Source: an uncultured bacterium
GTDB taxonomy: Bacteria > Fidelibacterota > UBA2242
Direction: 5' to 3'
Length of the DNA stretch: 59,320 nt
Assembly: GCA_964485475.1 (NCBI GenBank)
Contig: CAZAKB010000001.1
Location: 1-59,320, forward strand
The notes beneath the pieces are model-generated. The model did no database searches. It was not told the DNA's origin and saw nothing but the letters and a program-made list of their open reading frames with translations. Shown here piece after piece: positions 4,959-41,997 of the stretch (the first letter of the stretch is position 1; each line of letters starts with the position of its first letter). The position numbers were made by a program, and so were the translations under genes.

Positions 4959-5034
4959 TGAACGCGAAATAGTAAGTTTCTCTATTGCTAATTGAATTAA
5001 AATTAATGGATAAAATAGATATGGAAAAAGAAAG

Positions 5035-5487: not shown

Positions 5488-5534
5488 AACGATACGGTTC
5501 CATTATCTCTCTTCTCGTTTCTCCTCTTCACAAA

Positions 5535-5581
5535 TTCTCTCAACATCCCAGTTTTACCAGGGTGTTGGGAGAATTTCTTTT
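5535..5581. terminator. Hairpin terminator between the convergent rpiB and SorC-family genes
   Basis: Arms 5535-5549 and 5560-5573 form 14 bp with one bulged T around a 10-nt loop. TTTCTTTT follows on the + strand. Confidence 0.6.
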
Positions 5582-5591
5582 ACAGACGATT

Positions 5592-6515
5592 TCAGGATAA
5601 TTCTAATAACGCTTTCGCACCGATATCATCGATGATTATCGAATTTATTAAATTACCTTTTATGGCAGCTGCGAGCGCTTCCGCGCGATTGGCTCCGCTG
5701 GTAACAGCAATTACCTGGGGAATCTTTTTCAACTGTTCCAGACTTACACCGATAACATGATTGCGATATTCCGTATCGCATTCTTCACCGGATTTGTTGA
5801 AAAAGTGGCCACATATTTCTCCAACAACGCCTTTTTGAATCAGGTAATTGATATCGTTTGTCTTAAGAAAATCCCGGTCATAAAACACAGAATTACCGTG
5901 CATACCCACTCCGACAAAAGCCAGATCGGCATTCCCGATCCGGGACAACACAAATTTTATTTGATCGTGAGAAACAAAGGCATCATGGGTGTGGCTATTG
6001 GTAGTAATTGCTGGTGCCTGAAGCCGTAAAAATTGACCATTCCAGCGCTTGGAAAGTTTCCGAGTGATCTCAATTGCATCATCCTCTTTAATGTGTGTAC
6101 TTATATCTCCCATAGCCTGAATAAATGTCACTCCTGGTTTGTTTCCCGAAGGAAACATATTGTCAGTCAGGCTGTTGATATGTCGGCCCGCTGCAACACA
6201 AATGGCAGAATTGGGTTGAATCATACAACTTACAATCGGACCGGCGAAATGACCCAAAGCACGTCGCCGATTTTCCTCAGAATGCCCGGGGGTTGTCTTA
6301 ATCACCACAACTGTGCCCAGATTATGGATTTTTTTAATTTTATCTTCAATTTCGTTGTCTCTGGGCGAAAAAGGTTTGACTGATATCTGGACGATACCAC
6401 GCTTGCGGGCTTCTTCCAATAAACGTGATACCGTTGCTTGCGAAATTCCGGCCAATTCCGAAACTTTGGCCTGTCCAAGACCCTCGAGATAATAAAGTGT
6501 TGATACTAAAAGCAA
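5592..6515 (-). CDS. SorC/DeoR-type sugar-binding transcriptional regulator
   Basis: N-terminal HTH: LYYLEGLGQAKVSELAGISQATVSRLLEEARKRGIVQI. The C-terminal sugar-phosphate binding domain contains AFVGVG and VGEICG. The start is uncertain: TTG at 6515 has no SD, and ATT at 6542 has a well-spaced GAGG. Confidence 0.8.
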   Translation of the reverse strand: MLLVSTLYYLEGLGQAKVSELAGISQATVSRLLEEARKRGIVQISVKPFSPRDNEIEDKIKKIHNLGTVVVIKTTPGHSEENRRRALGHFAGPIVSCMIQPNSAICVAAGRHINSLTDNMFPSGNKPGVTFIQAMGDISTHIKEDDAIEITRKLSKRWNGQFLRLQAPAITTNSHTHDAFVSHDQIKFVLSRIGNADLAFVGVGMHGNSVFYDRDFLKTNDINYLIQKGVVGEICGHFFNKSGEECDTEYRNHVIGVSLEQLKKIPQVIAVTSGANRAEALAAAIKGNLINSIIIDDIGAKALLELS

Positions 6516-6928: not shown

Positions 6929-9664
6929 ATGCTTAATTTGTCGGAGATTTTAATGAATAAACGATCTGTTATTGCTACTTTAATAATTACCGCTTTATTT
7001 CGGGTCGCTTTTTCGGGTACAACCGGTAAAATCAGCGGTAAGATTATAGATGCAAATACAAGTGAACCGGTTATTGGAGCCAATATCTATCTTGAAAATA
7101 CCGATTACGGTGCTGTATCCGACGTTGATGGAAATTATTTTATCATCAATGTCTCACCGGGAATGTATAGCCTGGTATGTTCATTTATTGGATATGAGAA
7201 AATCACATATACCGGGATTTCGGTCAGTGTGGACAGAACATCGTCGATGAATTTTGAAATTAAACCGGAAACGATTCAGGGCAAAGAAGTTATCGTTGTT
7301 GGTGAACGTAAAGTAATTGAAATGGACCGGACGAACACAGCTGCCTATGTCTCTTCCGAAAACATTGAAAAGATGCCAGTTCAGGAATTAGACGATCTGA
7401 TCCAGCTTCAGACTGGTGTTGTGAAAGATGCCAGTGGTGAATTCCATATTCGGGGTGGTCGGGCTGGTGAGATTGCTTACTTAATTGATGGTGTTCCCAT
7501 TACCGATCAGTACAATGGTGGCAGTTCAATCGGTCTGGAAAACAATTGGGTACAGGAACTTCAGGTTATCAGCGGCACGTTTAATGCTGAATACGGACAG
7601 GCTCAGTCCGGTGTGGTTAATATCGTGACAAAAGAGGGTGCTAAGCAATTTAAGGGAAATATTTCTGTTGCGATGGGGGATTATTTATCCACCCATAATG
7701 ATGTATTTATGAACATTGATCATCTGAACATAGGCGAAACGGATATTAGCACCAATCTTCAGGGACCATTTCCGATTATCCCAAAGGGCTCATTCTATAC
7801 ATCACTACGCTATTATACGACCGATGGGTGGCTATACGGACAACGGAACGTGCGGATTGAGGACACTGTGCCGATTCAGCAATATATTAACCAGGCCAAT
7901 AAAACGTATAGCTCAGATCAAACCCTATACGGAATTCCGATTTCCGATTCTTTGCAAACCGGTGATGGCGAATATATTCCAATGAACTGGAAGAACAAAC
8001 TTTCGTTCTATGGAAAATTGACCACAAAACTGGGTCCGGCGAAAATCAATTACTCACTATTTTATAATGACGATAAAAGTAAAAGTTATTCGGATGCTTA
8101 CCGATATGCTCCCGATGGTGTCCGGACGAATTATGGGACAAGTTTCAATCACATACTTAGTTTTAATCATGTGTTGAGCAACAGCACGTTTTATGTGTTT
8201 AATCTTTCATGGTACTCGAAAAACACCCAGGCCTATTTATTTGAAGATCCGCTGGATAACCGCTATCAAGGGGCGGCTTATTCTGCAGACGGATTTTCCT
8301 ATGGCGGAACACAAAAAGGACGGTATGATATTACCCGGTCGGCGATATCTTCCAAGTTTGACTTTACCAGCCAGGTGAATATAGCAAACCAGATTAAATC
8401 CGGCATTGAACTTAAACAGCATAATCTGAAATACATCCTTCTGGAAACAGTTGCAGAAGGTCCTACATATGAATATCCGGACTTACGCATTCCCGCTCAA
8501 ATTACAGTAGGAAACGATCGATATACAGTAAAACCGATGGAAGCATCGGCATACATTCAGGATAAAATTGAATTAAATGAATTGATAATGAATTTTGGGC
8601 TGCGATACGATTTCTGGGATCCCAATGCCGTCGTTCCGGATACTTTGCGGGCCGCAGCAGATTCAGGTACTATTCGACTTGGTACAACGTTCTCTGACGC
8701 CAAAACACAATCTCAAATCAGTCCCCGTTTTGGTCTTGCTTTTCCGATTTCCTCAAATGGTGTCATACATGCATCCTATGGACACTTTTTTCAGTTACCC
8801 CGCTTTGAAGCAATTTACAGTAATTATGAATGTGAGATCGAACTCGGCAGTTTACAGTCCAAACTCGGAAATCCAAATCTGAAACCTGAGAAAACAGTCA
8901 GCTATGAAATCGGCTTGCAGCAGGAAATGCTGGGACATTTTGCACTGGACGTGACGGTGTTTTACAAAGACATCAAGAACCTGCTCAGCCAGGAGATCGT
9001 GTCAACAATCGATAAAAAAGTATATGCTCGGTATATCAATCGCGACTACGGGAATGTTAAAGGATTTACAATATCCTTTAAAAAAGGCCGGGGATATTCC
9101 GATTTCATGTCCGCGTCGGTGGATTATACGTATCAGGTAGCCCGGGGAAATGCTTCTGATCCAAATGCGATATTTACAAATTTTCAATCCGATCCGCCGA
9201 AGGAGCCTGAAAAACAGGTATTACCGTTGGATTGGGACCAAACTCATACCCTGAATGCCTCTCTGGCTATTGGTAATCCCTCGGATTGGAACCTGGGAGT
9301 AATTGGACGGTTTGCGACGGGGCAACCATATACTCCCAAAAATCCTGGTAGTGCCCTGACAGCCCAATTTGAAAATAGCGACCGCAAACCTGTAACCTTT
9401 AATATTGATTTAACGTTCTACAAGTTCGTTTCATTGTCTGAATTCAAAGTCAAGTTGTTCTGTAAAGTATTTAATTTAACTGACCGATTGAATGAAATAA
9501 AAGTATATTCAGGTACGGGTAGTGCCGATTATAATTATCGGACAATGGCGGACCGATTGGCATTATTACGAAATCCGAATTTTACAATTAAACAAATTGA
9601 CCTTAGACCGGATTACTATTCTGAGCCGCGCAAAATTCTTGTTGGTATCAGCGTAGATTTTTAA
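6929..9664 (+). CDS. TonB-dependent outer-membrane receptor with an N-terminal carboxypeptidase-regulatory-like domain (SusC-like architecture)
   Basis: CarbopepD_reg motif: GKISGKIIDANTSEPVIGANIYLENTDYGAVSDVDGNYFI. Plug motif: HIRGGRAGEIAYLIDGVPI and NAEYGQAQSGVVNIVTK. The barrel ends in a terminal F. The start may be the internal ATG at 6953 (MNKRSVIATL). Confidence 0.85.
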   Translation: MLNLSEILMNKRSVIATLIITALFRVAFSGTTGKISGKIIDANTSEPVIGANIYLENTDYGAVSDVDGNYFIINVSPGMYSLVCSFIGYEKITYTGISVSVDRTSSMNFEIKPETIQGKEVIVVGERKVIEMDRTNTAAYVSSENIEKMPVQELDDLIQLQTGVVKDASGEFHIRGGRAGEIAYLIDGVPITDQYNGGSSIGLENNWVQELQVISGTFNAEYGQAQSGVVNIVTKEGAKQFKGNISVAMGDYLSTHNDVFMNIDHLNIGETDISTNLQGPFPIIPKGSFYTSLRYYTTDGWLYGQRNVRIEDTVPIQQYINQANKTYSSDQTLYGIPISDSLQTGDGEYIPMNWKNKLSFYGKLTTKLGPAKINYSLFYNDDKSKSYSDAYRYAPDGVRTNYGTSFNHILSFNHVLSNSTFYVFNLSWYSKNTQAYLFEDPLDNRYQGAAYSADGFSYGGTQKGRYDITRSAISSKFDFTSQVNIANQIKSGIELKQHNLKYILLETVAEGPTYEYPDLRIPAQITVGNDRYTVKPMEASAYIQDKIELNELIMNFGLRYDFWDPNAVVPDTLRAAADSGTIRLGTTFSDAKTQSQISPRFGLAFPISSNGVIHASYGHFFQLPRFEAIYSNYECEIELGSLQSKLGNPNLKPEKTVSYEIGLQQEMLGHFALDVTVFYKDIKNLLSQEIVSTIDKKVYARYINRDYGNVKGFTISFKKGRGYSDFMSASVDYTYQVARGNASDPNAIFTNFQSDPPKEPEKQVLPLDWDQTHTLNASLAIGNPSDWNLGVIGRFATGQPYTPKNPGSALTAQFENSDRKPVTFNIDLTFYKFVSLSEFKVKLFCKVFNLTDRLNEIKVYSGTGSADYNYRTMADRLALLRNPNFTIKQIDLRPDYYSEPRKILVGISVDF

Positions 9665-9709
9665 AAAGTGAATATTCAATATGAGCAGATGAAATAATAA
9701 ATAAGTGAA

Positions 9710-12700
9710 ATGAGGAATATGAGTCGCTATAAAAAAATATTGGTTACTCTGATAATATCGATGCTGTTGACAGGTTCCATGGCATTAGCGGGGCCGGAAC
9801 ACCGTCGTACCGGAATTCATAACGGAAATCTGGTCAATACGCGCTACTCAAATTTTGGCAACTTGGGAAGTCGGGATGAATATCCGAAGATGGAATGGCC
9901 CAAAGGTACCGGTTTTATTTATGGTTTCGAATTTATCATGGAGGCCGCCGCGGAAGTAGTAGATGCAAACGGCGTGACCGTCCAGATTACTTCTGAAAGC
10001 TACACTCATCCGACATCACACGATATATCTCTTGATGGTACACATCTATGGAATTGGGAACCGCTACCGGGATATTTTAACGAGAATACATCTGTTAATA
10101 AAGATGAGTTTCCGGCGATGAGTCATAAACCGGAAACCTGGCCAACATCCTGGCCCTATGATTATCCCGGTGATCCCGGAACTCGGGACGGCATGTGGAA
10201 TGGTGAATTCGGGGCCTATGTGCGTGCTGACCAGGAAAGTTATTATATGATTGATGACCGGAACAATGATGAATTTGAGTATTATCCCTTTATTAACAGT
10301 GCCATTGATTCCGGGGGCTATTATACCGGTGGCCGCAGAGGACTTGGTTTACAAGTAAGGGTACGTGGCTATCAATGGGCAGCTGTTGCTGCCGAGGATA
10401 TCCTGATTGTGCGGTATGATTTTAAAAATTACAGTCAAAAAGATTTACCGAAAGTTGTCTTTGGCATGTATGCGGATGTCATGGTCGGAGATTCAGGGGA
10501 TTCGGCTGATGATTTAGCCTATTTTGATGACATTGATGATATTGTTTATTGCTGGGATGCCGATGGTTTGGACATTCATAACCGTACGGGGCTGGGATAT
10601 TTTGGATACGCTTTTTTAGAAAGCCCTGGTGATCCTCTCAATGGTCTTGATGATGATGAAGATGGAATCGTTGATGAAGAGCAGGATAATGATCGTGGCA
10701 GCTTTGATGAAAGTTCCGGGCATTGGGAAGGTGACGAAGACGGTGACTGGCGCGATTATACAGATGTTAATTCTAATGGTATTTGGGATCATGGTGAGTT
10801 TATCGGTGATGACGTTGGGTCCGATGGAATTGGTCCCTATGACCAGGGATACACCGGTCCTGATACGGACGGTACCGAGGCAAATGGGATGCCTGATCAG
10901 GGCGAACCGAATTTTGGAAAAACCGATAACGATGAATCCGACCAGATTGGTCTGACCAGTTTTATTCTTGTGAATGCACAGAGTTTGAAATACGATGACC
11001 GCAATTGGCAACAAATGACGCCTGGTCTTTTTTCCATACCGCCGGTGACCAATCTCGCATTTGTTTATGGGTCGGGTTATTTTGAGTTGCCGGTTGATCA
11101 TACTCGCAAGTTTGCCATTGCCAATTTATTCGGAAATGACTGGGAAGACATTATCAAGAACAAACGAACGATGCAAAAGATATATGATGCGGATTACAGC
11201 TTTACCAAACCGCCCCTCAAACCAAATGTCAGGGCAGTTGCCAGAGATAAGATGGTTGTTTTAACCTGGGATAAGATGGCGGAGTTGTCTATTGATCCGA
11301 TCTACCGGGAAGATTTCGAGGGGTATTTGATTTATAAAGCAACCGATCCGTCTTTTAATGAAATTAAATCTATTACCGATGCCAATGGTAATGCACTTTA
11401 CTGGAAACCAATTGCACAGTATGATCGGAAAGATGGTCTTTACGGGCTGCATCCGATCACGATCGAAGGGACCGGAGTCCATTTTGATATGGGTACGGAC
11501 AACGGATTAAAATATCATTATATCGACACCGATGTGGATAACGGGCGTCGTTATTTTTATGCGGTTTGTTCTTATGACCGGGGTTATGATGAGGATTTTT
11601 ATGACCGTGGTATTTCAAGTGTTCAATACCTGGCTGCGGTCTATCCGACGGAATGCAGTAAAATTATTCAACTGGATGCTGTGGGCGAACTTGAGTTCGT
11701 GGATATTAATTGCGCCGTTGTGACTCCCAATGCAGGGAGTGCTGGATATGTTGAAGGCCAAATGGGTGGTGAATATGAGCACACCGGTCTGGCGACAGGA
11801 AACCTCGAAGTAAATTTTGCAATTCCCGATGATGTTCAGGATAATCATACCTATGAAATAACCTTTTCTGATACGACTGGAGGGCGTTTTACAAATGGAA
11901 TATGTATCAAAGATCTGACAGATGATGAAATTCTTTTTCTTAAAGATTTCTATGATGAATATGTTATCAGTGATGAAATTATTGAAGGCATGCGTTTTGA
12001 TCTGTACAACGATTCTTCATATGTGACGGAGCGTGGGTGGTTAATTGGAGATTGTAATCTGCCGTATACAGTTGGTCCCAGCAAGGATACCGCCAAGCGC
12101 AGAACTTTGCCCGAAGATATTGAAATCCGAGTACTGGAACCTAACGCTGATACGTCTTTTTTTAATCCTCTTGATACACAATCGAACCGGCCGGTAAATT
12201 TTCAGATATGGAGTGTCAGTTATAATCAAAAACTTGACTTTGCATTTTTTGAAACTACTAATAAAGATGGGCTGCTGAATGGCGGTGACCAAATCAGTAT
12301 TTGCCATGAAATACAAAATTTTGGTACAGCCTCTAAAATTGCCTGGATTTTTGAACTGGATACTCTAAGTAGTGGAATTGATCCGCAAGCCGGTGATGTA
12401 TTTTATTTTAATGTGACTAAACCTTTTAATGCAGGTGATACAATCAGGTTTACAACGAATGCATCGAAAATCGTTAATCAGAATGCCAAAGAAGAATTGG
12501 ATGATATTTATGTAGTTCCGGATCCCTACGTGGTTAGTGCTTCCTGGGAGAAACCGCTTTTTTATTCCAGTGGCCGGGGTGAACGCCGGATCGATTTTGT
12601 GAATCTACCTCAGGAATGTACAATCCGGATTTATACGGTTTCGGGGAAAATGATCAAGACGATTAAACATACTTCCGCAATGGCGTTGGGTGCGGAACCC

Positions 12701-12811
12701 TGGGACCTTGTTTCTGAAGATGGATTAACTGTGTCCTATGGGATATATGTTTTCCATGTGGATGCTCCGGGAATTGGTTCCAAAGTTGGCAAGTTTGCAT
12801 TGATAAAGTGA
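9710..12811 (+). CDS. Large secreted partner protein (1033 aa) with a D-rich Ca-binding repeat region, an FN3-like module and a variant T9SS-like C-terminal domain. Function is unknown.
   Basis: It has a signal peptide. It is a paralogue of 43068-46685, sharing the blocks AMSH..TWP, GLGL...VRG.QW, FLESPG, ESDQIGLTSF, KPNVR.VA.DK.V.L.WD, DFEGY.IY.ATDP and Y.YAV..YD. The C terminus reads VVPDPYVV...RIDFVNLPQECTIRIYTVSGK...YGIYVFHVDAPGIGSKVGKFALIK. Confidence 0.75.
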   Translation: MRNMSRYKKILVTLIISMLLTGSMALAGPEHRRTGIHNGNLVNTRYSNFGNLGSRDEYPKMEWPKGTGFIYGFEFIMEAAAEVVDANGVTVQITSESYTHPTSHDISLDGTHLWNWEPLPGYFNENTSVNKDEFPAMSHKPETWPTSWPYDYPGDPGTRDGMWNGEFGAYVRADQESYYMIDDRNNDEFEYYPFINSAIDSGGYYTGGRRGLGLQVRVRGYQWAAVAAEDILIVRYDFKNYSQKDLPKVVFGMYADVMVGDSGDSADDLAYFDDIDDIVYCWDADGLDIHNRTGLGYFGYAFLESPGDPLNGLDDDEDGIVDEEQDNDRGSFDESSGHWEGDEDGDWRDYTDVNSNGIWDHGEFIGDDVGSDGIGPYDQGYTGPDTDGTEANGMPDQGEPNFGKTDNDESDQIGLTSFILVNAQSLKYDDRNWQQMTPGLFSIPPVTNLAFVYGSGYFELPVDHTRKFAIANLFGNDWEDIIKNKRTMQKIYDADYSFTKPPLKPNVRAVARDKMVVLTWDKMAELSIDPIYREDFEGYLIYKATDPSFNEIKSITDANGNALYWKPIAQYDRKDGLYGLHPITIEGTGVHFDMGTDNGLKYHYIDTDVDNGRRYFYAVCSYDRGYDEDFYDRGISSVQYLAAVYPTECSKIIQLDAVGELEFVDINCAVVTPNAGSAGYVEGQMGGEYEHTGLATGNLEVNFAIPDDVQDNHTYEITFSDTTGGRFTNGICIKDLTDDEILFLKDFYDEYVISDEIIEGMRFDLYNDSSYVTERGWLIGDCNLPYTVGPSKDTAKRRTLPEDIEIRVLEPNADTSFFNPLDTQSNRPVNFQIWSVSYNQKLDFAFFETTNKDGLLNGGDQISICHEIQNFGTASKIAWIFELDTLSSGIDPQAGDVFYFNVTKPFNAGDTIRFTTNASKIVNQNAKEELDDIYVVPDPYVVSASWEKPLFYSSGRGERRIDFVNLPQECTIRIYTVSGKMIKTIKHTSAMALGAEPWDLVSEDGLTVSYGIYVFHVDAPGIGSKVGKFALIK
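10630..10960 (+). repeat. Acidic DxDxDG-type (thrombospondin-3/dockerin-like) Ca-binding loop region inside the partner protein
   Basis: LDDDEDGIVDEEQDNDRG...EGDEDGDWRDYTDVNSNGIWD...DDVGSDGIGP...PDTDGTEANGMPD...TDNDESD. The GAT/GAC-rich DNA produces spurious ORFs in other frames. Confidence 0.65.
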
Positions 12812-12841
12812 TTAAAATGATAATTGGATTGAGGATTATAT

Positions 12842-13915
12842 ATGCATAATACAATAAAGGGGTGGTCAGTAGTATTAATTCTGATTTTACTGGTTTTTAC
12901 CGGAACGATGGATAGCATTGCCCAGGAAGAACAAGATTATGCCGACCTTATATATACAGGTGATGTTACCAAAAAGGGATCCTCAACTGCCCAATTTCTG
13001 GAAATTGGAATTGGTGCGCGAGCATTGTCTATGGGCAGCGCATTTACTGCAGTTGCCGATGACGCAACAGCTCTTTATTGGAACCCGGCAGGCATTACCC
13101 AAATCGCAAGGGCCAGTGTCTCCGGTACCCATACGGAGTGGTTTGCCGATATGTCTCTGGACTATGTTGCGGCTCTGGTTCCGGTCAGTAATGGACAGGT
13201 ACTGGGCTTAAGCATGTCTGTATTTAATGCAGTCGATAAGCAGTTGGTACGGACAGTAAGTTATCCTGAGGGAACCGGTGAGTATTACAGTGCGGCGGAT
13301 ATTTCTTTGGCCCTGACATATGCCATTAAAGTCACTGATCGGTTTTCCGGTGGATTAACCGGTAAATATATCCGGCAGCAGATTTGGCATTCCAGTTCAT
13401 CGGGATTTGCCATGGATATCGGATTATTGTACAAAACACAATTCAAGGGATTGAATATGGGTGCAAGTATATCGAATTTCGGTACGGATATGCGCCTGAA
13501 TGGCCGGGACTTGCGAAGGGCCTACGATGAAGATCCCGTCCATTATTCCAATGATAAATTGAATGTAATGCTGGAAACCGATGCTTTTCCGTTGCCTCTT
13601 CTGTTCAGGTATGGACTGTCATATAGCTTCACACCGATTAAATACAACGATATTACTCTGGCTGTGGACTTACTCCATCCTAGCAGTAATGTGGAATATA
13701 TCAATATCGGCATGGAATATTTACTGGGTAAAATTCTTTTCCTTCGGGTTGGCTACGAATCTTTATTCGATTCCGAATCTGAAAATGGTTTGAGCTACGG
13801 TGCCGGTATAAATTACCATCTGTATCAACAAACCTCGATTAATTTCGACTATGCATACATTGATTGGGGACGACTGTCCTATGTACAGCATTTTACGATT
13901 GGATTAACATTTTAA
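12842..13915 (+). CDS. PorV/PorQ-family (UPF0164-like) outer-membrane beta-barrel protein
   Basis: It has a signal peptide. The hallmark N-terminal motif is GIGARALSMGSAFTAVADDATALYWNPAGI. Alternating beta-strand patterns follow and the protein ends in F. It is a paralogue of 41998-43056. Confidence 0.7.
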   Translation: MHNTIKGWSVVLILILLVFTGTMDSIAQEEQDYADLIYTGDVTKKGSSTAQFLEIGIGARALSMGSAFTAVADDATALYWNPAGITQIARASVSGTHTEWFADMSLDYVAALVPVSNGQVLGLSMSVFNAVDKQLVRTVSYPEGTGEYYSAADISLALTYAIKVTDRFSGGLTGKYIRQQIWHSSSSGFAMDIGLLYKTQFKGLNMGASISNFGTDMRLNGRDLRRAYDEDPVHYSNDKLNVMLETDAFPLPLLFRYGLSYSFTPIKYNDITLAVDLLHPSSNVEYINIGMEYLLGKILFLRVGYESLFDSESENGLSYGAGINYHLYQQTSINFDYAYIDWGRLSYVQHFTIGLTF

Positions 13916-13949: not shown

Positions 13950-16529
13950 ATGAAAATGAAAAATGTTACAATGTTGGGCTTGTGCATGATCCTGCTGATC
14001 ATCGCATTTTTTCCAATTTCCACATCAGCACAGTGGGGAAAAGCACTCCATTATAAATGGTGGGAGCATGATCGGTTGTTGGTTTTGCAATCTGTGGATT
14101 ACTGGCCGGAACATGTGTACCAGGGAACCGTTGAATTGTTTTTCAAACTGGATTCTACACTTCGTTCAGATAATCATGGAAATACCTATACCTATCTTAT
14201 ATCGAAAAATCAGGGTGGAGCCGCCAAGGGTGATTTTGGTATCGCTTGGGAAACTGGTCAGGGTGATATTCATTCGTGGATTCAGGATGTTTCCAAAACC
14301 GCAGCTGTGCACAGTTATGAGATCCAGGTCTGGCAACCACGCTGGTATCATGTTGCCGTGACATGGGATGTTAACGATTCCATGCGTTTATGGATCGATG
14401 GTGTCCAAATGGCGCAAAGAATTCCTTCTGGTTTAATTAATGATACATATCCCCCATTAGATGTGGAGAGTGGTAATATGCCAATCGTTATCGGAAACCA
14501 AACAACCGAACAGATGTCGAGTACCTGGGATGGTTTTCGGGGAGTTATTGATGAATTCCGGATTTCCAATGTAGTTCGCTATACTGAAGATTTTGAAGTA
14601 CCCACAGAACCTTTTACGATGGACGCCGGGACAATGGCCCTTTGGCATTTCGACGAAGGCGAAGGATACATTGCTTATGACAATGCGTATGGATTATTTA
14701 ATGGAGCACTGGGCAATTCAATAAACGGATATGTCGATGCTCCACAATGGGTGGACATTGAGTATTCGGAAAAAATCATCATTAATGAAGTCTTACTGGA
14801 TGAAAGAAACAGTGATATTAACGGGGATGGGACCAGTGATGTAAAAGACGAGTTCGTCGAGTTGACGAATATATTTAATAAGGCTGTTGATTTGTCGGGA
14901 TGGCGGATAGGCGATGATGATGCAATCACTTTTACGTTTCCAGATGGTTATAAACTTGAACCAAATAAATTCGTCATCATCGTTGGTGGCGGTGATGTCA
15001 GCAGCCTACCGGGATATGACTCAGACCCATTAAAAACTGCAGTTTTTTCGGCTGGCGGCTCCATTGGTGACGGCTTGTCGGAAACCGGAGAGTATATCAT
15101 CCTACTATCGAGATTGGGCTATTCTGACTGTTACCTGGCTGTTGGCGACAAAGCCACTGCAGGAGCTCCGACATCAGCATTTCTCAGTGAAATTAACTGG
15201 GAATTTGTCAATACAACTGTTGCCGCTTCCGACCAGAATGCGTCTGTAACCCGAAACCAGGACGGGAATACGGAGATGGAAGATCCATTCGCGGTTCATA
15301 GCTCTACTGGAAGTGTTAACTATTCGCCAGGAACGACAATAGATGGTGCAGATTACTTGTCCTATTTAGTGACGATGAGTATGGACCCCGAAGGAGTTGG
15401 TACTTTGGAAATTGATACGGTAATGGCCCGCTATGAATATAACCAGGTGGTAACATTTAATGCAAAACCGATTTATGGTGAAGGACATGCCTTTGGGCAT
15501 TGGACGACCAATGATGTTGGTTTTACAAGTAAGTTAAATCCGCTGACCATGTCAATTAATAAACCCCAGCATGTGACTGCTCACTTTTTACCAAGGGTTC
15601 AAATTACACCGCGAGTAGTTATTAACGAGATCAACTTTGATGTTTACAAAGATGCCAATGGTGATGGTATCATCGAATCCAATCAGGATGAATTTGTCGA
15701 AATTATCAATATCTCTGCCGAAGATGTGGATTTGACCGGCTGGCGTTTGGGTGATGACGAAGAATTGTCTTTTACTTTTCCGGATGGATATGTAATCAAA
15801 TCCGGTCAGATCGTAACGGTTTTTTCCGGAGGAAATATCACGGGGGTTCCTGGCTTTAATGTGAATCCGACAAAATCCAAAGTCTTTGTCTCTGATGTTA
15901 TTGATCGCCTGGGAAACGGTCTGAATAATACAAATGAAGCAATATTACTGGTTTCTGCGGATGGGACCGAGGATATGTATGTCCAGAACCGTGACCGTAA
16001 TTTTAAAGGTGATCCGTTTATGAAGTCCGCTGAAGGTATTGACTTTGAAATTCGTATCGACGCGCAGGATTCCACCTGGAATAATAACTCGATTACCCTT
16101 TATCCTGATGGTGATTTGACTGAGGACGATCCCTATGTACAGCACAAAACCGTGGCGCTGAACGACTCCTGCTTTTCCCCTGGCCAGACGGTGGATTTCC
16201 AAAACTCCATAGTTGTAAATGCGATTGATGATTCGGAATCGGGTTTACCAAAATCCTTTGCACTGCATTCGAATTTTCCGAATCCCTTCAACCCGGAAAC
16301 TACGATTCGTTTTGATGTCCCTAGCCAATCAAAGGTTAGTTTGATTGTTTATGATATTTTAGGGAAAAAGGTTGCGGAACTGACGGATAATGAATTCAAT
16401 GCCGGATATTATCAGTTACGTTGGAATGGACGGAATAGTAACGGACAGATTGTCCCTGCGGGAGTCTATTTCTACCGGATTCAGACTGACAACTTTACTC
16501 AAACCAATAAAATGATTCTATTGAAATAA
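13950..16529 (+). CDS. Secreted T9SS cargo with a LamG (concanavalin-like) domain, two lamin-tail (LTD) domains and a type-A CTD
   Basis: LamG: WYHVAVTWD...LWIDGV...FRGVIDEFRISN. LTD1 at about 14778-15000: IINEVLLD...DEFVELTN...VDLSGWRIGDD. LTD2 at about 15618-15840: VINEINFD...DEFVEIINIS...VDLTGWRLGDD. CTD: NFPNPFNPETTIRFD...GVYFYRIQ...KMILLK. Confidence 0.75.
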   Translation: MKMKNVTMLGLCMILLIIAFFPISTSAQWGKALHYKWWEHDRLLVLQSVDYWPEHVYQGTVELFFKLDSTLRSDNHGNTYTYLISKNQGGAAKGDFGIAWETGQGDIHSWIQDVSKTAAVHSYEIQVWQPRWYHVAVTWDVNDSMRLWIDGVQMAQRIPSGLINDTYPPLDVESGNMPIVIGNQTTEQMSSTWDGFRGVIDEFRISNVVRYTEDFEVPTEPFTMDAGTMALWHFDEGEGYIAYDNAYGLFNGALGNSINGYVDAPQWVDIEYSEKIIINEVLLDERNSDINGDGTSDVKDEFVELTNIFNKAVDLSGWRIGDDDAITFTFPDGYKLEPNKFVIIVGGGDVSSLPGYDSDPLKTAVFSAGGSIGDGLSETGEYIILLSRLGYSDCYLAVGDKATAGAPTSAFLSEINWEFVNTTVAASDQNASVTRNQDGNTEMEDPFAVHSSTGSVNYSPGTTIDGADYLSYLVTMSMDPEGVGTLEIDTVMARYEYNQVVTFNAKPIYGEGHAFGHWTTNDVGFTSKLNPLTMSINKPQHVTAHFLPRVQITPRVVINEINFDVYKDANGDGIIESNQDEFVEIINISAEDVDLTGWRLGDDEELSFTFPDGYVIKSGQIVTVFSGGNITGVPGFNVNPTKSKVFVSDVIDRLGNGLNNTNEAILLVSADGTEDMYVQNRDRNFKGDPFMKSAEGIDFEIRIDAQDSTWNNNSITLYPDGDLTEDDPYVQHKTVALNDSCFSPGQTVDFQNSIVVNAIDDSESGLPKSFALHSNFPNPFNPETTIRFDVPSQSKVSLIVYDILGKKVAELTDNEFNAGYYQLRWNGRNSNGQIVPAGVYFYRIQTDNFTQTNKMILLK

Positions 16530-16559
16530 GTCAGTTTTTTAAAAATTAAGATTGTGATT

Positions 16560-16585
16560 ATGGGCGGCTTTAATAAGCCGCCCAT
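16560..16585. terminator. Strong 11-bp hairpin with no U-tract. It may be a terminator, or an RNA processing or stability element.
   Basis: ATGGGCGGCTT, TAAT loop, AAGCCGCCCAT. It lies 31 nt after the stop at 16529 and has no T-run on either strand. Confidence 0.4.
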
Positions 16586-18681: not shown

Positions 18682-20676
18682 ATGAGTAATATGAAATTAT
18701 TTAGTAATGCAGCAAAATGGCTTCCTTTTTTGACAGTAGTATTGACAATAAACGCAGTCGGTAACGTTCTATTCCGCTACAATTCGGATATTGAAGCCGA
18801 TTCACCGGTTCAGTCACCGGCTACACGAAATCAAATTACGATTCAGGAATATCTGCCGGAAAATGAAATTACTGCCAGGGGACCTTCCGGTTGGGGATTT
18901 GAAACGATGAATGTAACCCTTTTTGCCCGGGATTCATCCTGTATTTATTCACAGAATGAGATCAATACCACATTTTTCAACGATCATGCGATTTCCGGGG
19001 AAATTTGGATTAAACCATATTTATTGAATGGTAACCTGATGACCCTAGTTGACACTTATGGTGACAAGATAATATCTCTCTCGATTATTGACGGTAAAAT
19101 ACACTTTAAACGGAACCTTCAGAATTATATATTTGAGATTCAATCCCCGGATTTTTGTTCCCAGAATGAGTGGAATTATATTCACTGGATCAGTGGTACG
19201 GAAGAGGATACAATTTTCCAGAAACTGTATATTAATCGACAATTGGCTGTTGAGGAACGTCGGGCAATTATTCATTATCCACTTGGGTATGAAGTAATGA
19301 AGGGTTACCTGAAAATTGGTTTCGATGGTTCTTTGGCAAGCAGCGCTTATCGTGGTGAGATTTATGCGGTCGAATTGAAAAACATTGATTCTGGAAACGC
19401 CTATAATAATGCTTACTCCACATCCGATGGCAGCGCTTATTTCGGAATACCGGCATTCCGGTATTATGCCTCCGGTTCCTATATCAGACAAAAAACAATA
19501 AAGTCCTGCAAAGTCCCGGTGTTAAATACAATCTTTACTCCCTATATCAATGACGGCTATATTCCTCAGGGATTAACAAATTCCTATGAAGATGATCGAT
19601 TTAATGGTGACAGTGCTATGCTGTATTTAACGTTATATCATCGAACAATTACTGGAGAAATAGGGCAAAAACGGTCGCTTCTAGTGGAATTGGATCCCAA
19701 TAATGGCTATCAGGTTCGGCGATGCTTTCGCCTGAGCGCCGCTCTTGAAACCGCCCATGTTCCGGCAATGGCTTTTCGTGGTGGGAACATTATTATTACC
19801 AATGGCGGGGTCAGTTATAAACATGAAATCCCGGAATATAGTGGAGCCGGAACAGAGAAATATCAGACGCTGAATTATATCCGCTCAGTTAACATGTATT
19901 CCTCAAGTGCGACCTGTTATTCTGACTCAATCTGGTGCTGTACTTTGTTTGCTGATCAAGTCGGAGAGACTGCTTATCTCGCCGGATACCCGATTGATAG
20001 CACCGGTAATGTCAATCACACTGCGCCACCGAGGTACTACATGATGCCGATGTATGTTCAGGGTGCAGCGTGGACCCGATTCCAGGGTGAAGATTATCTT
20101 TTTGTTTCTGCCAGCTCCGGGGATAATGATTCAAAACTATATCGTTACTCACGAAAAAACCTATCCCGTTGGTTTTTAGCTGATCCCGACACGATATTTT
20201 ATTTACCTGCTGGAACGGAAGATGTGACATTTAACGAAAAAGGAAATTTACTGAACGTCTCGGAATCATCCGCGCTGTACTATTCCAGTCGGACTTCCAA
20301 TCCTTGGTCACAATTTTATCCATTTATTTTTGAAATCCAAAGAGATGTCCTGTTTGCAGATCTAATTAATGGAAGTACCGGCATTCGCTTGGAAAATCAT
20401 AGCACAATTCCCGATGATTTTGAGTTGTCTGCCTATCCAAATCCCTTCAACAACCAATTGAATATTCGGTACCAGATTAAGCCAGTATCAACTTCTCAAA
20501 TAAACATTTTCGACCTTAGCGGACGTTTGGTTGATTCATTTTCAAATATGAATACTACTAATTCCTATACTAATTATATCTGGAACGCTGCCAGCGTCTC
20601 TTCGGGTATTTATTTTGTTCAATTGATTGTAGATAGGATTCCAGCCCAATCAGAGAAAGTAGTTTTGCTTAAATGA
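18682..20676 (+). CDS. Secreted T9SS cargo with an N-terminal LamG-like domain, a central region of unknown function and a type-A CTD
   Basis: It has a signal peptide. A LamG-like pattern is present (ISGEIWIKP...WNYIHWISG...LYINRQL). CTD: AYPNPFNNQLNIRYQ...GIYFVQL...KVVLLK. Confidence 0.6.
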   Translation: MSNMKLFSNAAKWLPFLTVVLTINAVGNVLFRYNSDIEADSPVQSPATRNQITIQEYLPENEITARGPSGWGFETMNVTLFARDSSCIYSQNEINTTFFNDHAISGEIWIKPYLLNGNLMTLVDTYGDKIISLSIIDGKIHFKRNLQNYIFEIQSPDFCSQNEWNYIHWISGTEEDTIFQKLYINRQLAVEERRAIIHYPLGYEVMKGYLKIGFDGSLASSAYRGEIYAVELKNIDSGNAYNNAYSTSDGSAYFGIPAFRYYASGSYIRQKTIKSCKVPVLNTIFTPYINDGYIPQGLTNSYEDDRFNGDSAMLYLTLYHRTITGEIGQKRSLLVELDPNNGYQVRRCFRLSAALETAHVPAMAFRGGNIIITNGGVSYKHEIPEYSGAGTEKYQTLNYIRSVNMYSSSATCYSDSIWCCTLFADQVGETAYLAGYPIDSTGNVNHTAPPRYYMMPMYVQGAAWTRFQGEDYLFVSASSGDNDSKLYRYSRKNLSRWFLADPDTIFYLPAGTEDVTFNEKGNLLNVSESSALYYSSRTSNPWSQFYPFIFEIQRDVLFADLINGSTGIRLENHSTIPDDFELSAYPNPFNNQLNIRYQIKPVSTSQINIFDLSGRLVDSFSNMNTTNSYTNYIWNAASVSSGIYFVQLIVDRIPAQSEKVVLLK

Positions 20677-22244
20677 AACTTGTGTCAAAATTTCATTTAC
20701 CGGTCATGGTTATAGCAATATTATTGACTGCATCGTGCAGTAAACCACGGTTAGAGCCAGATTCACCAATTCTGGCAAAGGTCGGTGATAATCGGATTAC
20801 CGTAAAAAGTTTTACAGAAAGTTATAGCTTTGGCCCTTCCGTATTGAAAAGTGTTTCCGGTGCTAAAGAGAACTATTTAAAGGCTATGATAAACGAAGAA
20901 ATTCTGGCCCAATTACCGGAAGTGAATACGTTGCAGTCAAAACCAATCGTCCAAAAATCTTTGCGTTTACTGAAACAAGAATTGCTGGTTGAAAAATTAT
21001 TTAATGTTGAAGTTGGTGAAAAAGTATCTGTCAGCGACGAGGAGATTCGGGAAGCAGTTATTAAATCCGCTTATGAAAATAAAGTGAAGTACATCTATAC
21101 CGATGATCTTAAAGAGGCACAGCAATTTGAGAAAGAATTAAGTGCAGGGGCAGATTTCGACAGCCTGCTAGCGGGAAAACTCGGGCGAATAGGCATAACT
21201 CTTGAAAATGGCGAGACCGATTTTATTGGTTACGGTGAGCTGCAAGAGCCGTTTAACAAAACTATTTTTAATATTGAACTGAACGATGTTACCCCGATAA
21301 TTCCTAATGGTAAAGGCTATTACATCATCAAAAAAACAGATTCCCGCAAGATGATTATTTCGGAAATGGACTTTGCGACGTACAGGCACCGTTATGAGCA
21401 AATAATTCGTTATAAAAAGGACCGGGTCCAGACCGGCAAATTCCTGGCTGAATTTATGGATCCCAAAGAACTGATTGTGGACGGTAAGATTTTTACCACA
21501 TTGGTCAATACAATTTATCCGATTACTATTCAGTCACCATCGGATTCTCTTTTAACTCAAAACCAAAACGGAACTGACATTAGTCCATTTGGTCAAATAT
21601 CCAACAATCTCTTGGATTATTATGATTTGCCCGTAGTACGATTTAAAGGGGGGAATTGGACAGTCCGAGAACTACTGTATCATTTATCCTATCGGCCGCT
21701 TGATTTACGATCGACAAGCATTGAAGATTTTGCAGGAAAATTGCGGAGCATCATTGGCCTGACTGTGCGTGATGTATTTATGGAGGAAGAGGCGTTGAAG
21801 CGGAATTATGATCGTGATCCGCAAATTCGGTATGAATTGGACCGTTGGGAGCGGAAATACACGAGCCAGGTTTTTATAGATTCGATCAGGGCACAATGCA
21901 TTCCCGATGCTGCAGAAGTTCAATCACTGTTTAATAATTCCGCATATGGGTCAAATATTAAATTTAATCAGGTTGAGGTTTACTTAACGAACCTGATTAG
22001 GATGAAAAAGACCCATGGTCAGCTTAGAGAGTTAATTAATGCGAGTGGGATTGAGGTCACAACCTATCCTGAAAACTTGAAATCCGTTGAAGTCGATGAA
22101 CCACGAGCTGGTCGTTTACCGGATGTAAAACTGTATAAACTTGGTTTACCCTATTTTCGGGAAGCGTTTCCGACACCCGATATTTTATGGAGTGCCGATG
22201 AATTGTATCATAATATTTATCGGGAATCTGAACAATCAGAATAA
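20673..22244 (+). CDS. Parvulin-type peptidyl-prolyl isomerase lipoprotein (SurA/PpiD-like chaperone)
   Basis: Lipobox LTASC. It has an N-terminal SurA-like chaperone segment and a PpiC-like segment (GETDFIGYGELQEPFNKTIF...GKGYYIIKKTD). Its ATG overlaps the upstream stop (ATGA), which suggests translational coupling. Confidence 0.65.
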   Translation: MKLVSKFHLPVMVIAILLTASCSKPRLEPDSPILAKVGDNRITVKSFTESYSFGPSVLKSVSGAKENYLKAMINEEILAQLPEVNTLQSKPIVQKSLRLLKQELLVEKLFNVEVGEKVSVSDEEIREAVIKSAYENKVKYIYTDDLKEAQQFEKELSAGADFDSLLAGKLGRIGITLENGETDFIGYGELQEPFNKTIFNIELNDVTPIIPNGKGYYIIKKTDSRKMIISEMDFATYRHRYEQIIRYKKDRVQTGKFLAEFMDPKELIVDGKIFTTLVNTIYPITIQSPSDSLLTQNQNGTDISPFGQISNNLLDYYDLPVVRFKGGNWTVRELLYHLSYRPLDLRSTSIEDFAGKLRSIIGLTVRDVFMEEEALKRNYDRDPQIRYELDRWERKYTSQVFIDSIRAQCIPDAAEVQSLFNNSAYGSNIKFNQVEVYLTNLIRMKKTHGQLRELINASGIEVTTYPENLKSVEVDEPRAGRLPDVKLYKLGLPYFREAFPTPDILWSADELYHNIYRESEQSE

Positions 22245-34620: not shown

Positions 34621-34660
34621 ACGAAAAATAACGAAATATAACGAAACTTATGCGAAAATG
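34621..34660 (+). repeat. Four helically phased (10-bp period) [AG]CGAAA repeats abutting the LacI start codon
   Basis: The units are ACGAAAAATA, ACGAAATATA, ACGAAACTTA and TGCGAAAATG. They share the CGAAA half-site with the palindrome at 34521-34534. Confidence 0.5.
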
Positions 34661-34669
34661 GAGATATTC

Positions 34670-35674
34670 ATGACAACTATTAGGGATATTGCGAAAGAAG
34701 CAAACTGTTCACTGGCAACAGTTTCTAAAGCAATTAACGGCAGATCGGATGTCAGTGAATCTACGCGTGTTCGAATATTGAAAATTGCTAAAGAACACAA
34801 TTTTGTGCCAAGTGCCTTTGGGAAAGGATTGAAAAATGGCAAGACTGAGAATATTGGTGTTATTTTTTGCCGGGAATCACAACCTTTGTCACTAAATCCG
34901 TTTTATTCCAGGGTACTGGAAGGTATCGAAGCGGAGTTGGCAATAAATAATTATAACCTGGTTTTGCATATGTTGCCTGAAGAATACAGGGACGAATATC
35001 CGAAAATGTTGAAGGAGCGAAACGTAGATGGTGTAGTATTGATTGGTGTTCTTCAGGAGAAATTTATCAGTCAATTGAAAAAACAAAATATTCCTACAAT
35101 TCTTATAGATCCAAAAATCATTACAAAAGAATTCAATCAGGTGTTAATTGATAATGAACACGGGGCCTATTTAGCTACACAATATCTAATTAATAAAGGA
35201 CATAAACGAATTGCTTTCATATCCGGCGACTTAGAACGCGAAAGTTTTCGACAACGGTATTCCGGCTTTAAAAAAGCAATGAATCATTACAAATTAAATA
35301 TTGGTGACAATTATATCCAGACAGGTGGTCTTGAAAATGGGTACGAACTCGTTTCGGCGTTGCTGAATCAGAAGGACCGGCCAACGGCAATATTTGCTGC
35401 AAATGATATCAACGCTATTTATGGTTATCGGGCCATAAAAGATTGCAATTTTCAGATTCCTGAACATATTAGTATTATTGGATTTGATGACATTGAATTA
35501 GCCAAAATGGCTACGCCACCATTAACGACAATTCGAGTTTATAAAGAGGAAATGGGATCGATAGCCGTAAGAAATTTACTCCAAATAATTAACAAGGAAA
35601 CTGATCGGCCAATGTCAGTTTTAGTACCAGTCAGACTGATTGAACGAAGTTCAGTCAATGCTTTAAATGGATAA
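34670..35674 (+). CDS. LacI-family transcriptional regulator
   Basis: The HTH is MTTIRDIAKEANCSLATVSKAINGRSDVSESTRVRILKIAKEHNFVPS. A periplasmic-binding-protein-like sugar domain follows. An alternative ATG at 34658 is 4 codons upstream. Confidence 0.9.
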   Translation: MTTIRDIAKEANCSLATVSKAINGRSDVSESTRVRILKIAKEHNFVPSAFGKGLKNGKTENIGVIFCRESQPLSLNPFYSRVLEGIEAELAINNYNLVLHMLPEEYRDEYPKMLKERNVDGVVLIGVLQEKFISQLKKQNIPTILIDPKIITKEFNQVLIDNEHGAYLATQYLINKGHKRIAFISGDLERESFRQRYSGFKKAMNHYKLNIGDNYIQTGGLENGYELVSALLNQKDRPTAIFAANDINAIYGYRAIKDCNFQIPEHISIIGFDDIELAKMATPPLTTIRVYKEEMGSIAVRNLLQIINKETDRPMSVLVPVRLIERSSVNALNG

Positions 35675-41975: not shown

Positions 41976-41997
41976 CCTTTGATTTGGAGTAAAGTTG

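Follow-up and report, generated by a model that had tools for sequence, protein, structure and literature searches.

The 59,320-nucleotide stretch of DNA analysed here (the window) carries two copies, in loci which we refer to as A and B, of an outer-membrane gene cassette made up of a TonB-dependent receptor (TBDR), a very large partner protein and a small barrel of the PorV/PorQ family, with a parvulin-type PPIase as an accessory. The cassette is a widespread module without a name and is not peculiar to this genome; our literature search found no paper describing this TBDR/T9SS-tailed partner/PorV-like system. We interpret it as a substrate-specific outer-membrane import unit, in which a T9SS-exported and barrel-held partner would capture substrate for a non-SusC TBDR, an interpretation to which we assign a probability of about 50%, and its role is probably that of a counterpart to SusC/SusD of Bacteroides.

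Gene content, homology and distribution of the two loci

Locus A lies downstream of a divergently transcribed SorC-type regulator (5592..6515, reverse strand; Pfam Sugar-bind) and encodes, on the forward strand like all other genes described here, the TBDR (911 aa, 6929..9664), the partner (1033 aa, 9710..12811) and the 14-strand-type barrel (357 aa, 12842..13915). These are followed by a T9SS cargo with LamG and lamin-tail (LTD) domains (13950..16529), a 664-aa T9SS cargo in which Pfam recognised no domain besides the C-terminal domain (CTD) (18682..20676) and a PPIase lipoprotein (523 aa, 20673..22244; lipobox ...LTASC), the start of which overlaps the stop codon of the 664-aa cargo gene (ATGA). 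Locus B, a mannan locus headed by a LacI-type regulator (34658..35674, Pfam), encodes the TBDR (992 aa, 38997..41975; Pfam, BLASTP), the barrel (353 aa, 41995..43056), the partner (1205 aa, 43068..46685) and a PPIase lipoprotein with SurA_N and parvulin domains (470 aa, 46687..48099), which starts 1 nt past the partner stop codon. Intergenic gaps within the cassettes are 1–45 bp. Both cassettes are surrounded by enzymes and inner-membrane transporters with their own regulators, six Pfam-positive T9SS cargos are present in the window, and the CAZymes of locus B comprise GH26, GH130, CBM9 and CBM35. Locus B does not qualify as a strict PUL in the PULDB sense, as it has CAZymes and no susC/susD pair. 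These open-reading frames coincide exactly with those of the first-pass annotation, and the conserved gene content in rearranged order that it described, as well as the ATGA overlap, are present in the sequence.

Pairwise BLASTP aligned all four gene pairs between the loci: the TBDRs share 34% identity (E 3e-169), the partners 32% (E 7e-92), the PorV-like barrels 41% (E 7e-85) and the PPIases 20% (E 2e-17), and all four are real paralogues. The partner alignment starts at residue 1 and spans the conserved N-domain and FN3 domain, with a second HSP outside the acidic low-complexity stretch. The earlier proposal of functional linkage would have been undone had the 1033- and 1205-aa proteins, or the two barrels, proved non-homologous outside low-complexity regions, which the BLASTP alignments exclude. 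The DNA of the two loci is strongly diverged, as had been claimed, with only five patches of 65–188 bp matching in blastn (65–79% identity). The window copies are about equally distant in TBDR, partner and PorV-like barrel (37, 38 and 39% identity on alignments), which is the expectation under parallel divergence, and across loci the distance matrices of the three proteins correlate (r = 0.93, 0.90 and 0.84; none of 999 permutations was as high). The two cassettes are old, diverged copies of one module.

We surveyed 135 loci from Neomarinimicrobiota, Calditrichota, Rhodothermales, Ignavibacteria (including Melioribacter and Rosettibacter), KSB1 and others, and in nearly every testable case the partner gene lies between a TBDR and a PorV/PorQ-family barrel gene. 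A TBDR gene directly precedes the partner gene in 72 of 73 testable cases, and a barrel gene directly follows it in 71 of 76; 95 of 141 partner genes have both flanks and 15 of 141 the order of locus B. Against the import reading, four loci (L017, L018, L019 and L066) encode the family tail with no PorV-like gene within the flank available. The order TBDR-partner-PorV is the norm across the sampled loci, and that of locus B, TBDR-PorV-partner-PPIase, is the derived one. Every sampled locus with at least 54% identity to locus B has the derived order, and it is absent from all more distant ones. The first-pass annotation had called locus A permuted; the orders do differ, with the polarity reversed. 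The loci nearest to A (~58–63% identity), labelled Neomarinimicrobiota, Caldithrix and Ignavibacteria, share its gene order, and those nearest to B (57–80% identity) share that of B, the labelled ones being Marinimicrobia and a 'Bacteroidetes' MAG.

The idea that the two cassettes reflect a recent segmental duplication, or the chance co-location of common outer-membrane genes, is favoured by nothing more than that two copies lie within 59 kb of each other in the window, and it can be discarded, given protein identities of 32–41% with almost no DNA similarity, synteny in more than 100 loci, and closer relatives of each copy that keep its own gene order, some in differently labelled phyla. Linkage by function, as opposed to recent duplication, was the earlier inference, and the recurrence of the co-diverging trio across several phyla supports it more strongly than the window sequence by itself could.

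Receptors, barrels and PPIases

Both TBDRs belong to the TonB-dependent receptor superfamily, with CarboxypepD_reg, Plug (PF07715) and TonB_dep_Rec barrel (PF00593) domains above cut-offs. Neither is a SusC/RagA protein: the locus A receptor reaches 88 of the 368 bits required by TIGR04056, over model positions 2–216 at the N-terminus only, and the locus B receptor has no match to this model at E ≤ 0.01. What they have in common with SusC is the N-terminal extension alone, which in locus A matches the SusC extension structure 9hfj_A (E 1.7e-6).

Both small barrels are members of the PorV/PorQ family (NF033709, 206.5 bits in A and 180.6 bits in B against a cut-off of 90, model positions 1–326). 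They fall well short of PorV, PorQ and PorV2 proper (NF033710, NF033711 and NF052325), scoring 60–66, 82–98 and 90 bits where 250, 220 and 325 are needed, and to judge by these scores they form a separate subfamily from the three equivalogs. The only PDB sequence match of the locus A barrel is PorV of F. johnsoniae (6h3i_F), and we presume this barrel to be the cognate anchor for the partner CTD. The locus B barrel has a weak Toluene_X/FadL match. It could be invoked for a reading in which the barrel is an independent FadL-type channel and the CarboxypepD_reg-type TBDR works outward, exporting the partner or another protein, in the manner of the Oar receptor of Myxococcus, on which secretion of the protease PopC depends. 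For a TonB-dependent transporter that protein secretion requires, a precedent exists (PMC6434023). We consider this reading very improbable: the partner already has a T9SS-type export tail, the cassettes are accompanied by inner-membrane importers and catabolic enzymes, and a channel for hydrophobic substrates is implausible in a mannan locus.

Both window PPIases have a parvulin rotamase domain (Rotamase_3, 28.1 bits in A and 49.2 bits in B, cut-off 22.5) and a lipobox cysteine, and that of locus B also has SurA_N_3. Across cassettes the N-terminus varies, with a lipobox in some and a plain signal peptide in others. The PPIase is an accessory of the cassette: of 83 cassettes examined, 41 have one no more than 8 kb downstream. 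The distant position of the locus A PPIase, described earlier as displaced, is real, yet it is no accident of this genome, as the same string occurs in close relatives of locus A: those labelled Ignavibacteria and Caldithrix have TBDR, partner and PorV followed, after further genes, by an LTD/LamG CTD cargo, a ~665-aa CTD cargo and the PPIase. The LamG/LTD cargo accompanies the cassette in these close relatives too, the same gene being present in L001 and L002, in both of which a 660–665-aa CTD cargo precedes the PPIase. Similarly, the Rhodothermales-labelled loci, and L001 which is most like them, have the PPIase at a matching distance.

A pairing of PorV/FadL-like barrel and PPIase could also be a private outer-membrane biogenesis aid for the TBDR and partner, comparable to BamG with BamJ and BamK. 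In the Bacteroidota BAM, PPIase lipoproteins at the surface accompany a FadL-type barrel (PMC12578637), a PPIase accompanies about half of the cassettes, and the locus A barrel has a faint BamG match (NF053685, E 4e-6). That match reaches only 26 of the 250 bits required, whereas the barrel passes the PorV-family model with 206 bits; half of the loci do without the PPIase, which is not consistently a lipoprotein; and the T9SS-type tail of the partner would be left unexplained, so we regard this explanation as improbable. The likeness to BAM is that of a FadL/PorV-like barrel platform for surface proteins with PPIases (there BamG with the surface lipoproteins BamH-K, two of them PPIases); the cassette differs in having no BamA link, in not meeting the BamG model and in its optional, probably periplasmic PPIase.

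The partner family and its C-terminal tail

The partner family has more than 2600 homologues, forming about 1190 clusters at 50% identity, and every annotation is 'hypothetical'. No Pfam or NCBIfam model exists for the family, and neither window partner matched either database, Pfam giving nothing even at E ≤ 10. Partner A has a Sec signal peptide without a lipobox and a modular architecture, beginning with a conserved, beta-rich N-domain (~27–505) which contains an acidic, Ca-loop-like insert (~310–410), followed by FN3 (~506–625), variable Ig-like domains (~700–925) and a T9SS-like CTD; its AF2 model has a pLDDT of 69. Partner B has the same architecture with a longer acidic insert. Mean identity is 48% in the N-domain, 58% in the CTD and 27% in the variable middle, which consists of Ig-like domains or, in some members, of a Reg_prop propeller. 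No recognisable fold relative was found for the N-domain, and a catalytic role can therefore not be excluded. The partner is not a SusD, having neither a SusD/RagB Pfam domain nor a lipobox cysteine.

The CTD occupies the C-terminal ~104 residues of partner A (12497..12811, ending ...KVGKFALIK; partner B ends ...KVGRLLIIK). It remains below curated thresholds (13.9 and 13.7 bits against 23 for TIGR04183, with PF18962 not reported). A profile HMM of it matches the extreme C-termini of bona fide, Pfam-positive Por_Secre_tail cargos, hhalign relates it to the canonical CTDs of the window with a probability of 96% (E 3.6e-9), and a terminal K-x-(hydrophobic)3-K is common to the partner tail and the true cargos of the window. 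The tail is thus homologous to T9SS CTDs, and these profiles indicate a family-specific, divergent type-A member. That its secretion depends on the T9SS and that the CTD is retained are inferences. Two near-identical full-length relatives (P0230 and P0232) have a canonical PF18962 tail instead, and the locus of P0232 is a mannan locus without a TBDR and without a PorV-like gene, which is a hint, from one locus only, that the family-specific tail goes with the dedicated barrel. The partial correlation of CTD with PorV given the N-domain (0.31) is lower than that of CTD with TBDR (0.48), so region-wise co-variation does not single out the CTD-PorV pairing.

The tail also shows weak matches to the retained-CTD ends of PorZ and PorU, and this raises the alternative that partner and barrel form a locus-specific T9SS attachment or secretion module, like PorZ-PorQ or PorU-PorV, which receives, processes or tethers the neighbouring CTD enzymes without binding substrate or capping the TBDR. 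CTD cargos indeed flank most cassettes, often directly 5' of the TBDR, PorZ (5m11) is among the Foldseek matches of the partner with a probability of 0.99, but at rank 30, and the Reg_prop propellers of some family members are of a repeat type known from PorZ as well. Outside the tail, however, we found no sequence similarity to PorU or PorZ and no peptidase signature, the near-obligate pairing is with the TBDR and not with cargo genes, and a housekeeping complex would not need dozens of paralogues specific to substrate loci with a middle that varies by locus. We therefore consider an attachment role unlikely, though less readily dismissed than an assembly role.

A proposed route of polymer import

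In the import reading, the partner of ~1000–1200 residues would be exported by Sec and then recognised by the T9SS through its divergent CTD. The tail would be neither cleaved nor linked to LPS, and the PorV/PorQ-family barrel of the cassette would hold the partner at the surface by its retained CTD, as modelled on PorQ-PorZ and PorV-PorU. The N-domain and FN3 may then sit on or beside the non-SusC TBDR, with the variable Ig-like or Reg_prop module capturing the substrate of the locus and passing fragments to the receptor, whilst neighbouring T9SS-secreted enzymes would cleave the polymer extracellularly. We predict mannan as the substrate of locus B; for locus A, a glycerophosphodiester or teichoic-acid-like polymer is probable. 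The parvulin/SurA-like PPIase may, where present, act in the periplasm as a chaperone of these large secreted or membrane proteins. That the partner is retained on the barrel, touches the TBDR and binds substrate, and that the PPIase is a chaperone, is all inferred, with no experimental or structural evidence of contact between any of the proteins.

The retention of CTDs on cognate PorV-like barrels has precedent (PMC10202324). PorQ-PorZ and PorV-PorU likewise combine a PorV/PorQ-family barrel with a large surface protein anchored by its retained T9SS CTD (PMC10202324); they are single-copy secretion housekeeping, in contrast to the multiplied, locus-specific cassette pair tied to a nutrient transporter, and the rest of the cassette partner is unrelated to PorZ or PorU. 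The SprB-SprF/PorP-type system of Flavobacterium also has a cargo with a non-standard CTD that uses a dedicated PorV-like barrel. There, the SprF/PorP-type barrel gene adjoins that of its type B CTD cargo. The cassette tail is instead a type-A derivative, its barrel is of the PorV/PorQ family, and no gliding adhesins are involved.

SusC/SusD is the textbook account of Bacteroidota polymer uptake. The cassette resembles it in having a TBDR with a carboxypeptidase-regulatory-like N-terminal extension, the gene of which adjoins that of a presumed surface partner, in its regulated loci with secreted degradative enzymes, and in its many substrate-specific paralogues per genome, in which partner and transporter co-evolve. 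It differs in that the TBDR fails the SusC/RagA model and that the partner is unrelated to SusD, 2–3 times larger, not a lipoprotein, and equipped with a T9SS-type tail and a PorV-like barrel of its own. In Bacteroides, non-SusD lipoprotein 'lids' are encoded beside non-SusC TBDTs and have been proposed to cover their outer face (Price, Deutschbauer & Arkin, bioRxiv 10.1101/2023.03.17.533168). The adjoining of a non-SusD protein gene and a non-SusC TBDT gene is common to both systems, but the lids are small and follow the lipoprotein pathway, whereas the cassette partner is very large, of Sec/T9SS type and presumably anchored on a separate barrel. CUT loci of Xanthomonas and aquatic Proteobacteria, which are carbohydrate loci centred on a TBDT (PMC1790865), likewise group the TBDT with degradative enzymes, a regulator and a transporter of the inner membrane in the absence of SusD; unlike the cassette loci they are not known to have a dedicated surface partner, a PorV-like barrel or T9SS.

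A broader extension, which we offer tentatively and with less assurance than the import reading itself, is that much of the FCB superphylum, the classic Bacteroidia excepted, possesses a second, SusD-independent form of TonB-dependent polymer uptake, built on a T9SS-delivered partner held through an uncleaved, specialised CTD by a private PorQ-like barrel, in which PorV-family barrels act as structural subunits of importers as well as in secretion and which serves both non-glycan (phosphodiester, locus A) and glycan (mannan, locus B) polymers. In oceans, sediments and hot springs, abundant degraders include Marinimicrobia, Calditrichota, Ignavibacteria, Rhodothermales and KSB1, whose TBDR-centred loci to our knowledge carry no SusD. 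If true, this phylum-spanning module would fill the SusD gap and serve as a marker by which 'PUL-like' loci of these phyla could be recognised, and the role of T9SS and PorV-family barrels would extend from secretion to import machinery. The hypothesis is directly testable in the cultured carriers Melioribacter and Rosettibacter, the survey having placed cassettes in Melioribacter roseus and Rosettibacter primus (loci L035, L057 and L073).

Two diverged copies of the cassette

The window carries two copies (locus A and locus B) of a cassette encoding a TonB-dependent receptor (TBDR), a large surface-protein candidate (which we refer to as the partner) and a PorV-like barrel, often with a parvulin-type prolyl isomerase (PPIase), and everything from position 6929 to the window end lies on the + strand. 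In locus A the TBDR (6929-9664) is followed by a 1033-aa partner (9710-12811) and a 357-aa barrel (12842-13915), with a 523-aa PPIase at 20673-22244; in locus B the order is TBDR (38997-41975), barrel (41995-43056), 1205-aa partner (43068-46685) and PPIase (46687-48099). Pfam and NCBIfam assign CarboxypepD_reg, Plug and TonB barrel domains to both TBDRs and have no match for either partner, and both PPIases possess a parvulin rotamase domain and a lipobox Cys. The barrels of loci A and B score 206 and 181 bits, respectively, against the PorV/PorQ family model NF033709 (cut-off 90 bits) and are members of this family, the more specific PorV, PorQ and PorV2 equivalog models are not met.

Our ORF table reproduced all coordinates of the first-pass annotation, which had taken the four gene pairs to be strongly diverged paralogues. 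All four are homologous by pairwise BLASTP: 32% identity for the partner (E 7e-92), 34% for the TBDR (E 3e-169), 41% for the barrel (E 7e-85) and 20% for the PPIase (E 2e-17). The partner alignment spans the ordered N-terminal and FN3 regions, beyond the acidic stretch alone, and the objection that the proteins might not be homologous outside low-complexity sequence is thereby answered. At the DNA level the two loci share only five short patches of 65-79% identity (blastn), as strong a divergence as had been described. The reported translational coupling is likewise present: the end of a 664-aa cargo (a protein with a C-terminal T9SS sorting domain, CTD) overlaps the start of the locus A PPIase by ATGA (20673-20676); in locus B a 1-nt spacer separates partner and PPIase (46685/46687). 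We also considered the PPIases as surface lipoproteins, on the basis of acidic residues after the lipobox Cys, and dropped this idea, as no consistent signal emerged from N-termini that vary widely and often are plain signal peptides.

Distribution, gene order and co-divergence

Database relatives number >2600 for partner A and >3400 for partner B, and searching 1.84 billion representatives with a profile (E <= 1e-30) recovered the family as 1190 clusters at 50% identity. Among the matches listed, relatives are unnamed or 'hypothetical protein', except P0230 and P0232, two partner-family members with a T9SS sorting-domain annotation. The sources are labelled, among others, Marinimicrobia/Neomarinimicrobiota, Ignavibacteria, Rhodothermales, KSB1, Calditrichaeota and 'Bacteroidetes' MAGs; cultured carriers are Rosettibacter primus (L035) and, by MAG assignment, Melioribacter roseus (L057, L073).

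We sampled 80 genome loci (first set), 53 metagenome loci and a few exact look-ups, called ORFs and searched them with eight window proteins. In the first set the gene directly upstream of the partner is a TBDR homologue in 72 of the 73 cases that could be tested, and the one directly downstream is a PorV-like homologue in 71 of 76. Across all loci, 95 of 141 partner genes have the TBDR on the left and the PorV-like gene on the right, 15 show the locus B order and just one complete case lacks both neighbours. PPIase homologues occur within 8 kb downstream of 41 of 83 cassettes; in the first set, 16 of 67 have one directly after the PorV-like gene. Four cassettes from KSB1- or 'Cytophagia'-labelled MAGs (L017, L018, L019, L066) have a TBDR and a family-tailed partner without a PorV-like gene in the flank covered; L017 and L018 instead continue with several ~600-aa CTD cargos. 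Two tandem cassettes occur on one contig in L021, L037, L075, L128 and L132, much as susC/susD pairs are repeated in tandem in some Bacteroides PULs.

The first-pass annotation had called locus A permuted and its PPIase displaced. The difference in order is real, the polarity is the reverse. Wherever the partner is at least 54% identical to that of locus B, the sampled loci have the order TBDR-PorV-partner (L086, L088-L099, L107, L112, L115). The PPIase comes next where the contig reaches that far, and L086 has the same CBM9 cargo upstream and a GH26 cargo downstream of the cassette. Every locus more distant from B has TBDR-partner-PorV, including remote ones which align by the C-terminal half only. 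From this distribution, we read the locus A order as the family norm and place locus B in a sub-clade with a derived order. Similarly, the locus A PPIase is indeed distant from the partner, yet the string TBDR-partner-PorV-LTD/LamG cargo-~665-aa cargo-PPIase recurs in Ignavibacteria- and Caldithrix-labelled loci, and in Rhodothermales-labelled loci and L001 (which resembles these most) the PPIase sits at a matching distance; the 'displacement' is thus a conserved feature of this locus group. The LamG and lamin-tail-domain cargo (13950-16529) and the domainless ~665-aa cargo (18682-20676) accompany the A-type cassette across phyla. The latter is always directly 5' of the PPIase (window, L001, L002), and each window locus therefore has a CTD-bearing gene immediately before its PPIase gene.

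Over 67 cassettes, the distance matrices of the three core proteins are correlated (r = 0.93 for TBDR-partner, 0.90 for TBDR-PorV and 0.84 for partner-PorV), values equalled by 0 of 999 permutations; the five loci nearest to locus A are the same for all three proteins, and the identities between copies A and B on the alignments are 37, 38 and 39%. Judged from these distances, the cassette is inherited as a whole unit and the window copies diverged in parallel, which answers the phylogenetic check that had been proposed. The functional linkage argued for earlier gains the same support, from conserved synteny and co-divergence across loci. A recent duplication or chance co-location of the genes is refuted as an explanation; the distance matrices, the gene order of the B clade and blastn together rule out recent duplication.

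The partner protein and its tail

The partner begins with a Sec signal peptide that lacks a lipobox. The AF2 model of partner A (pLDDT 69), combined with region-wise conservation, gives a beta-rich N-domain (residues 27-505, 48% mean identity) containing an acidic disordered stretch rich in DxDxDG-like loops (~310-410), then FN3, Ig-like domains that form a variable region (701-925, 27% identity) and a conserved tail (last ~104 residues, 58% identity). In some members Reg_prop beta-propeller repeats replace the variable region whilst N-domain and tail are retained; P0242, P0249, P0258 and P0267 (1350-1590 aa, from other metagenomes) are of this kind and keep the family-specific CTD. PDB sequence profile searches with the partner found nothing, a separate N-domain model, built on an alignment of 10 sequences, was of low quality (pLDDT 45), and the structural matches to the full-length model were FN3/Ig chains only (TM <0.1), with PorZ at rank 30, too weak to decide the fold.

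Sequence comparison identifies the tail as a T9SS type-A sorting domain of divergent type. It ends in ...KVGKFALIK or ...KVGRLLIIK, like the true cargos of the window (...MILLK, ...VVLLK); six window proteins are Pfam-positive for the domain. An HMM of 87 partner tails matches Pfam-positive cargos, in the window and the loci alike, at their extreme C-termini, and hhalign of the tail against an alignment of the six canonical window CTDs with the P0230 CTD reaches 96% probability (E 3.6e-9). The tail falls below both curated thresholds (PF18962 and TIGR04183), which is why the family is annotated 'hypothetical', and full-length relatives P0230 and P0232 have the canonical PF18962 tail. P0232 (L087, 10001-13567; 45% identity to partner B) lies among GH26, GH5 and GH2 genes in a mannan locus that has neither a TBDR nor a PorV-like gene close by, a hint, from this single locus, that family-specific tail and private barrel go together. 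A region-wise mirror-tree did not reveal specific co-variation of the CTD with the PorV-like barrel, and we do not count it as support. In line with a T9SS-type tail, the NCBIfam models of PorZ and PorU match it weakly at their CTD ends. A locus-specific PorZ/PorU-like attachment module for the neighbouring cargos remains possible, at lower probability than the reading proposed below.

A proposed surface module and its surroundings

Beyond the observed homology, synteny, co-divergence, modularity and CTD homology, we infer a surface anchor by analogy. The T9SS substrates PorU and PorZ keep their CTDs, which anchor PorU on PorV and PorZ on PorQ, and cognate PorV-like barrels (PorP/SprF) serve particular cargos (PMC10202324). 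On these precedents, the T9SS would export the partner and the cassette's own PorV/PorQ-family barrel would hold it on the surface, where its conserved N-domain/FN3 may cooperate with the adjacent non-SusC TBDR and its variable module bind the substrate of the locus, whilst neighbouring T9SS enzymes would cleave the polymer. The PPIase (SurA_N and parvulin) would be an optional periplasmic chaperone. The proposal is weakened by the four loci without a PorV-like gene in the flank covered, by the mirror-tree result and by an N-domain that has no assigned fold. With less probability, the barrel and the PPIase could be private assembly factors, like BamG with the PPIase lipoproteins of the Bacteroidota BAM (PMC12578637), or the TBDR could work outwards, like Oar.

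The functionally closest system to the cassette is SusC/SusD, however the TBDR fails SusC membership (TIGR04056, 88 bits; cut-off 368) and the partner, which is no lipoprotein, lacks a SusD domain. Alternative lipoprotein lids (Price et al.) share the idea but involve different proteins and a different export route. We found no description of the cassette in the full-text literature searched or in the Melioribacter and Caldithrix genome papers, which does not prove it unpublished; as far as we found, the combination of a TBDT and surface partner with a T9SS cargo and cognate PorV-like barrel is undescribed. The module is large, phylum-spanning and unnamed, and its mechanism, though inferred, is testable.

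Locus A is headed by a SorC regulator (5592-6515, - strand) divergent from the cassette. Its enzyme set (373-6515 and 13950-33892) comprises two glycerophosphodiester phosphodiesterases (GDPD), a glycerol-1-phosphate-dehydrogenase-like Fe-ADH_2, a HAD phosphatase, an MFS transporter, RpiB, a phospholipase-C-like protein, a Ugp-like ABC importer, an FGGY kinase and two metallophosphoesterases; in related loci GlpD and PhoD join this set. The substrate therefore looks like phosphodiester polymers or head groups (teichoic-acid-like, glycerophosphodiesters, phospholipids) and not glycan, an inference only. Locus B, with LacI at its head, a CBM9 cargo, an N-acylglucosamine 2-epimerase-family protein (PF07221), GH130 and a GH26 cargo, is a mannan locus. 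A long ORF absent from the ORF table, with CBM35, metallo-beta-lactamase fold and esterase/alpha-beta hydrolase regions (56524-59319, + strand) runs off the window end and may be its acetyl-mannan esterase; the L087 mannan locus also has a CBM35 and Lactamase_B protein.

Promoter and terminator scans of locus A did not exceed chance level and Rfam found no RNA families in the window. A URO-D-like (uroporphyrinogen-decarboxylase-family) gene (16618-17712) lies within locus A, flanked by a T9SS cargo and a GDPD, and is absent from that position in L001 and L002. As annotated, the PLC-like ORF (22248-23078) and a GTG-started solute-binding-protein ORF (22996-24546) overlap by 83 bp, the true start of the latter is probably further downstream.
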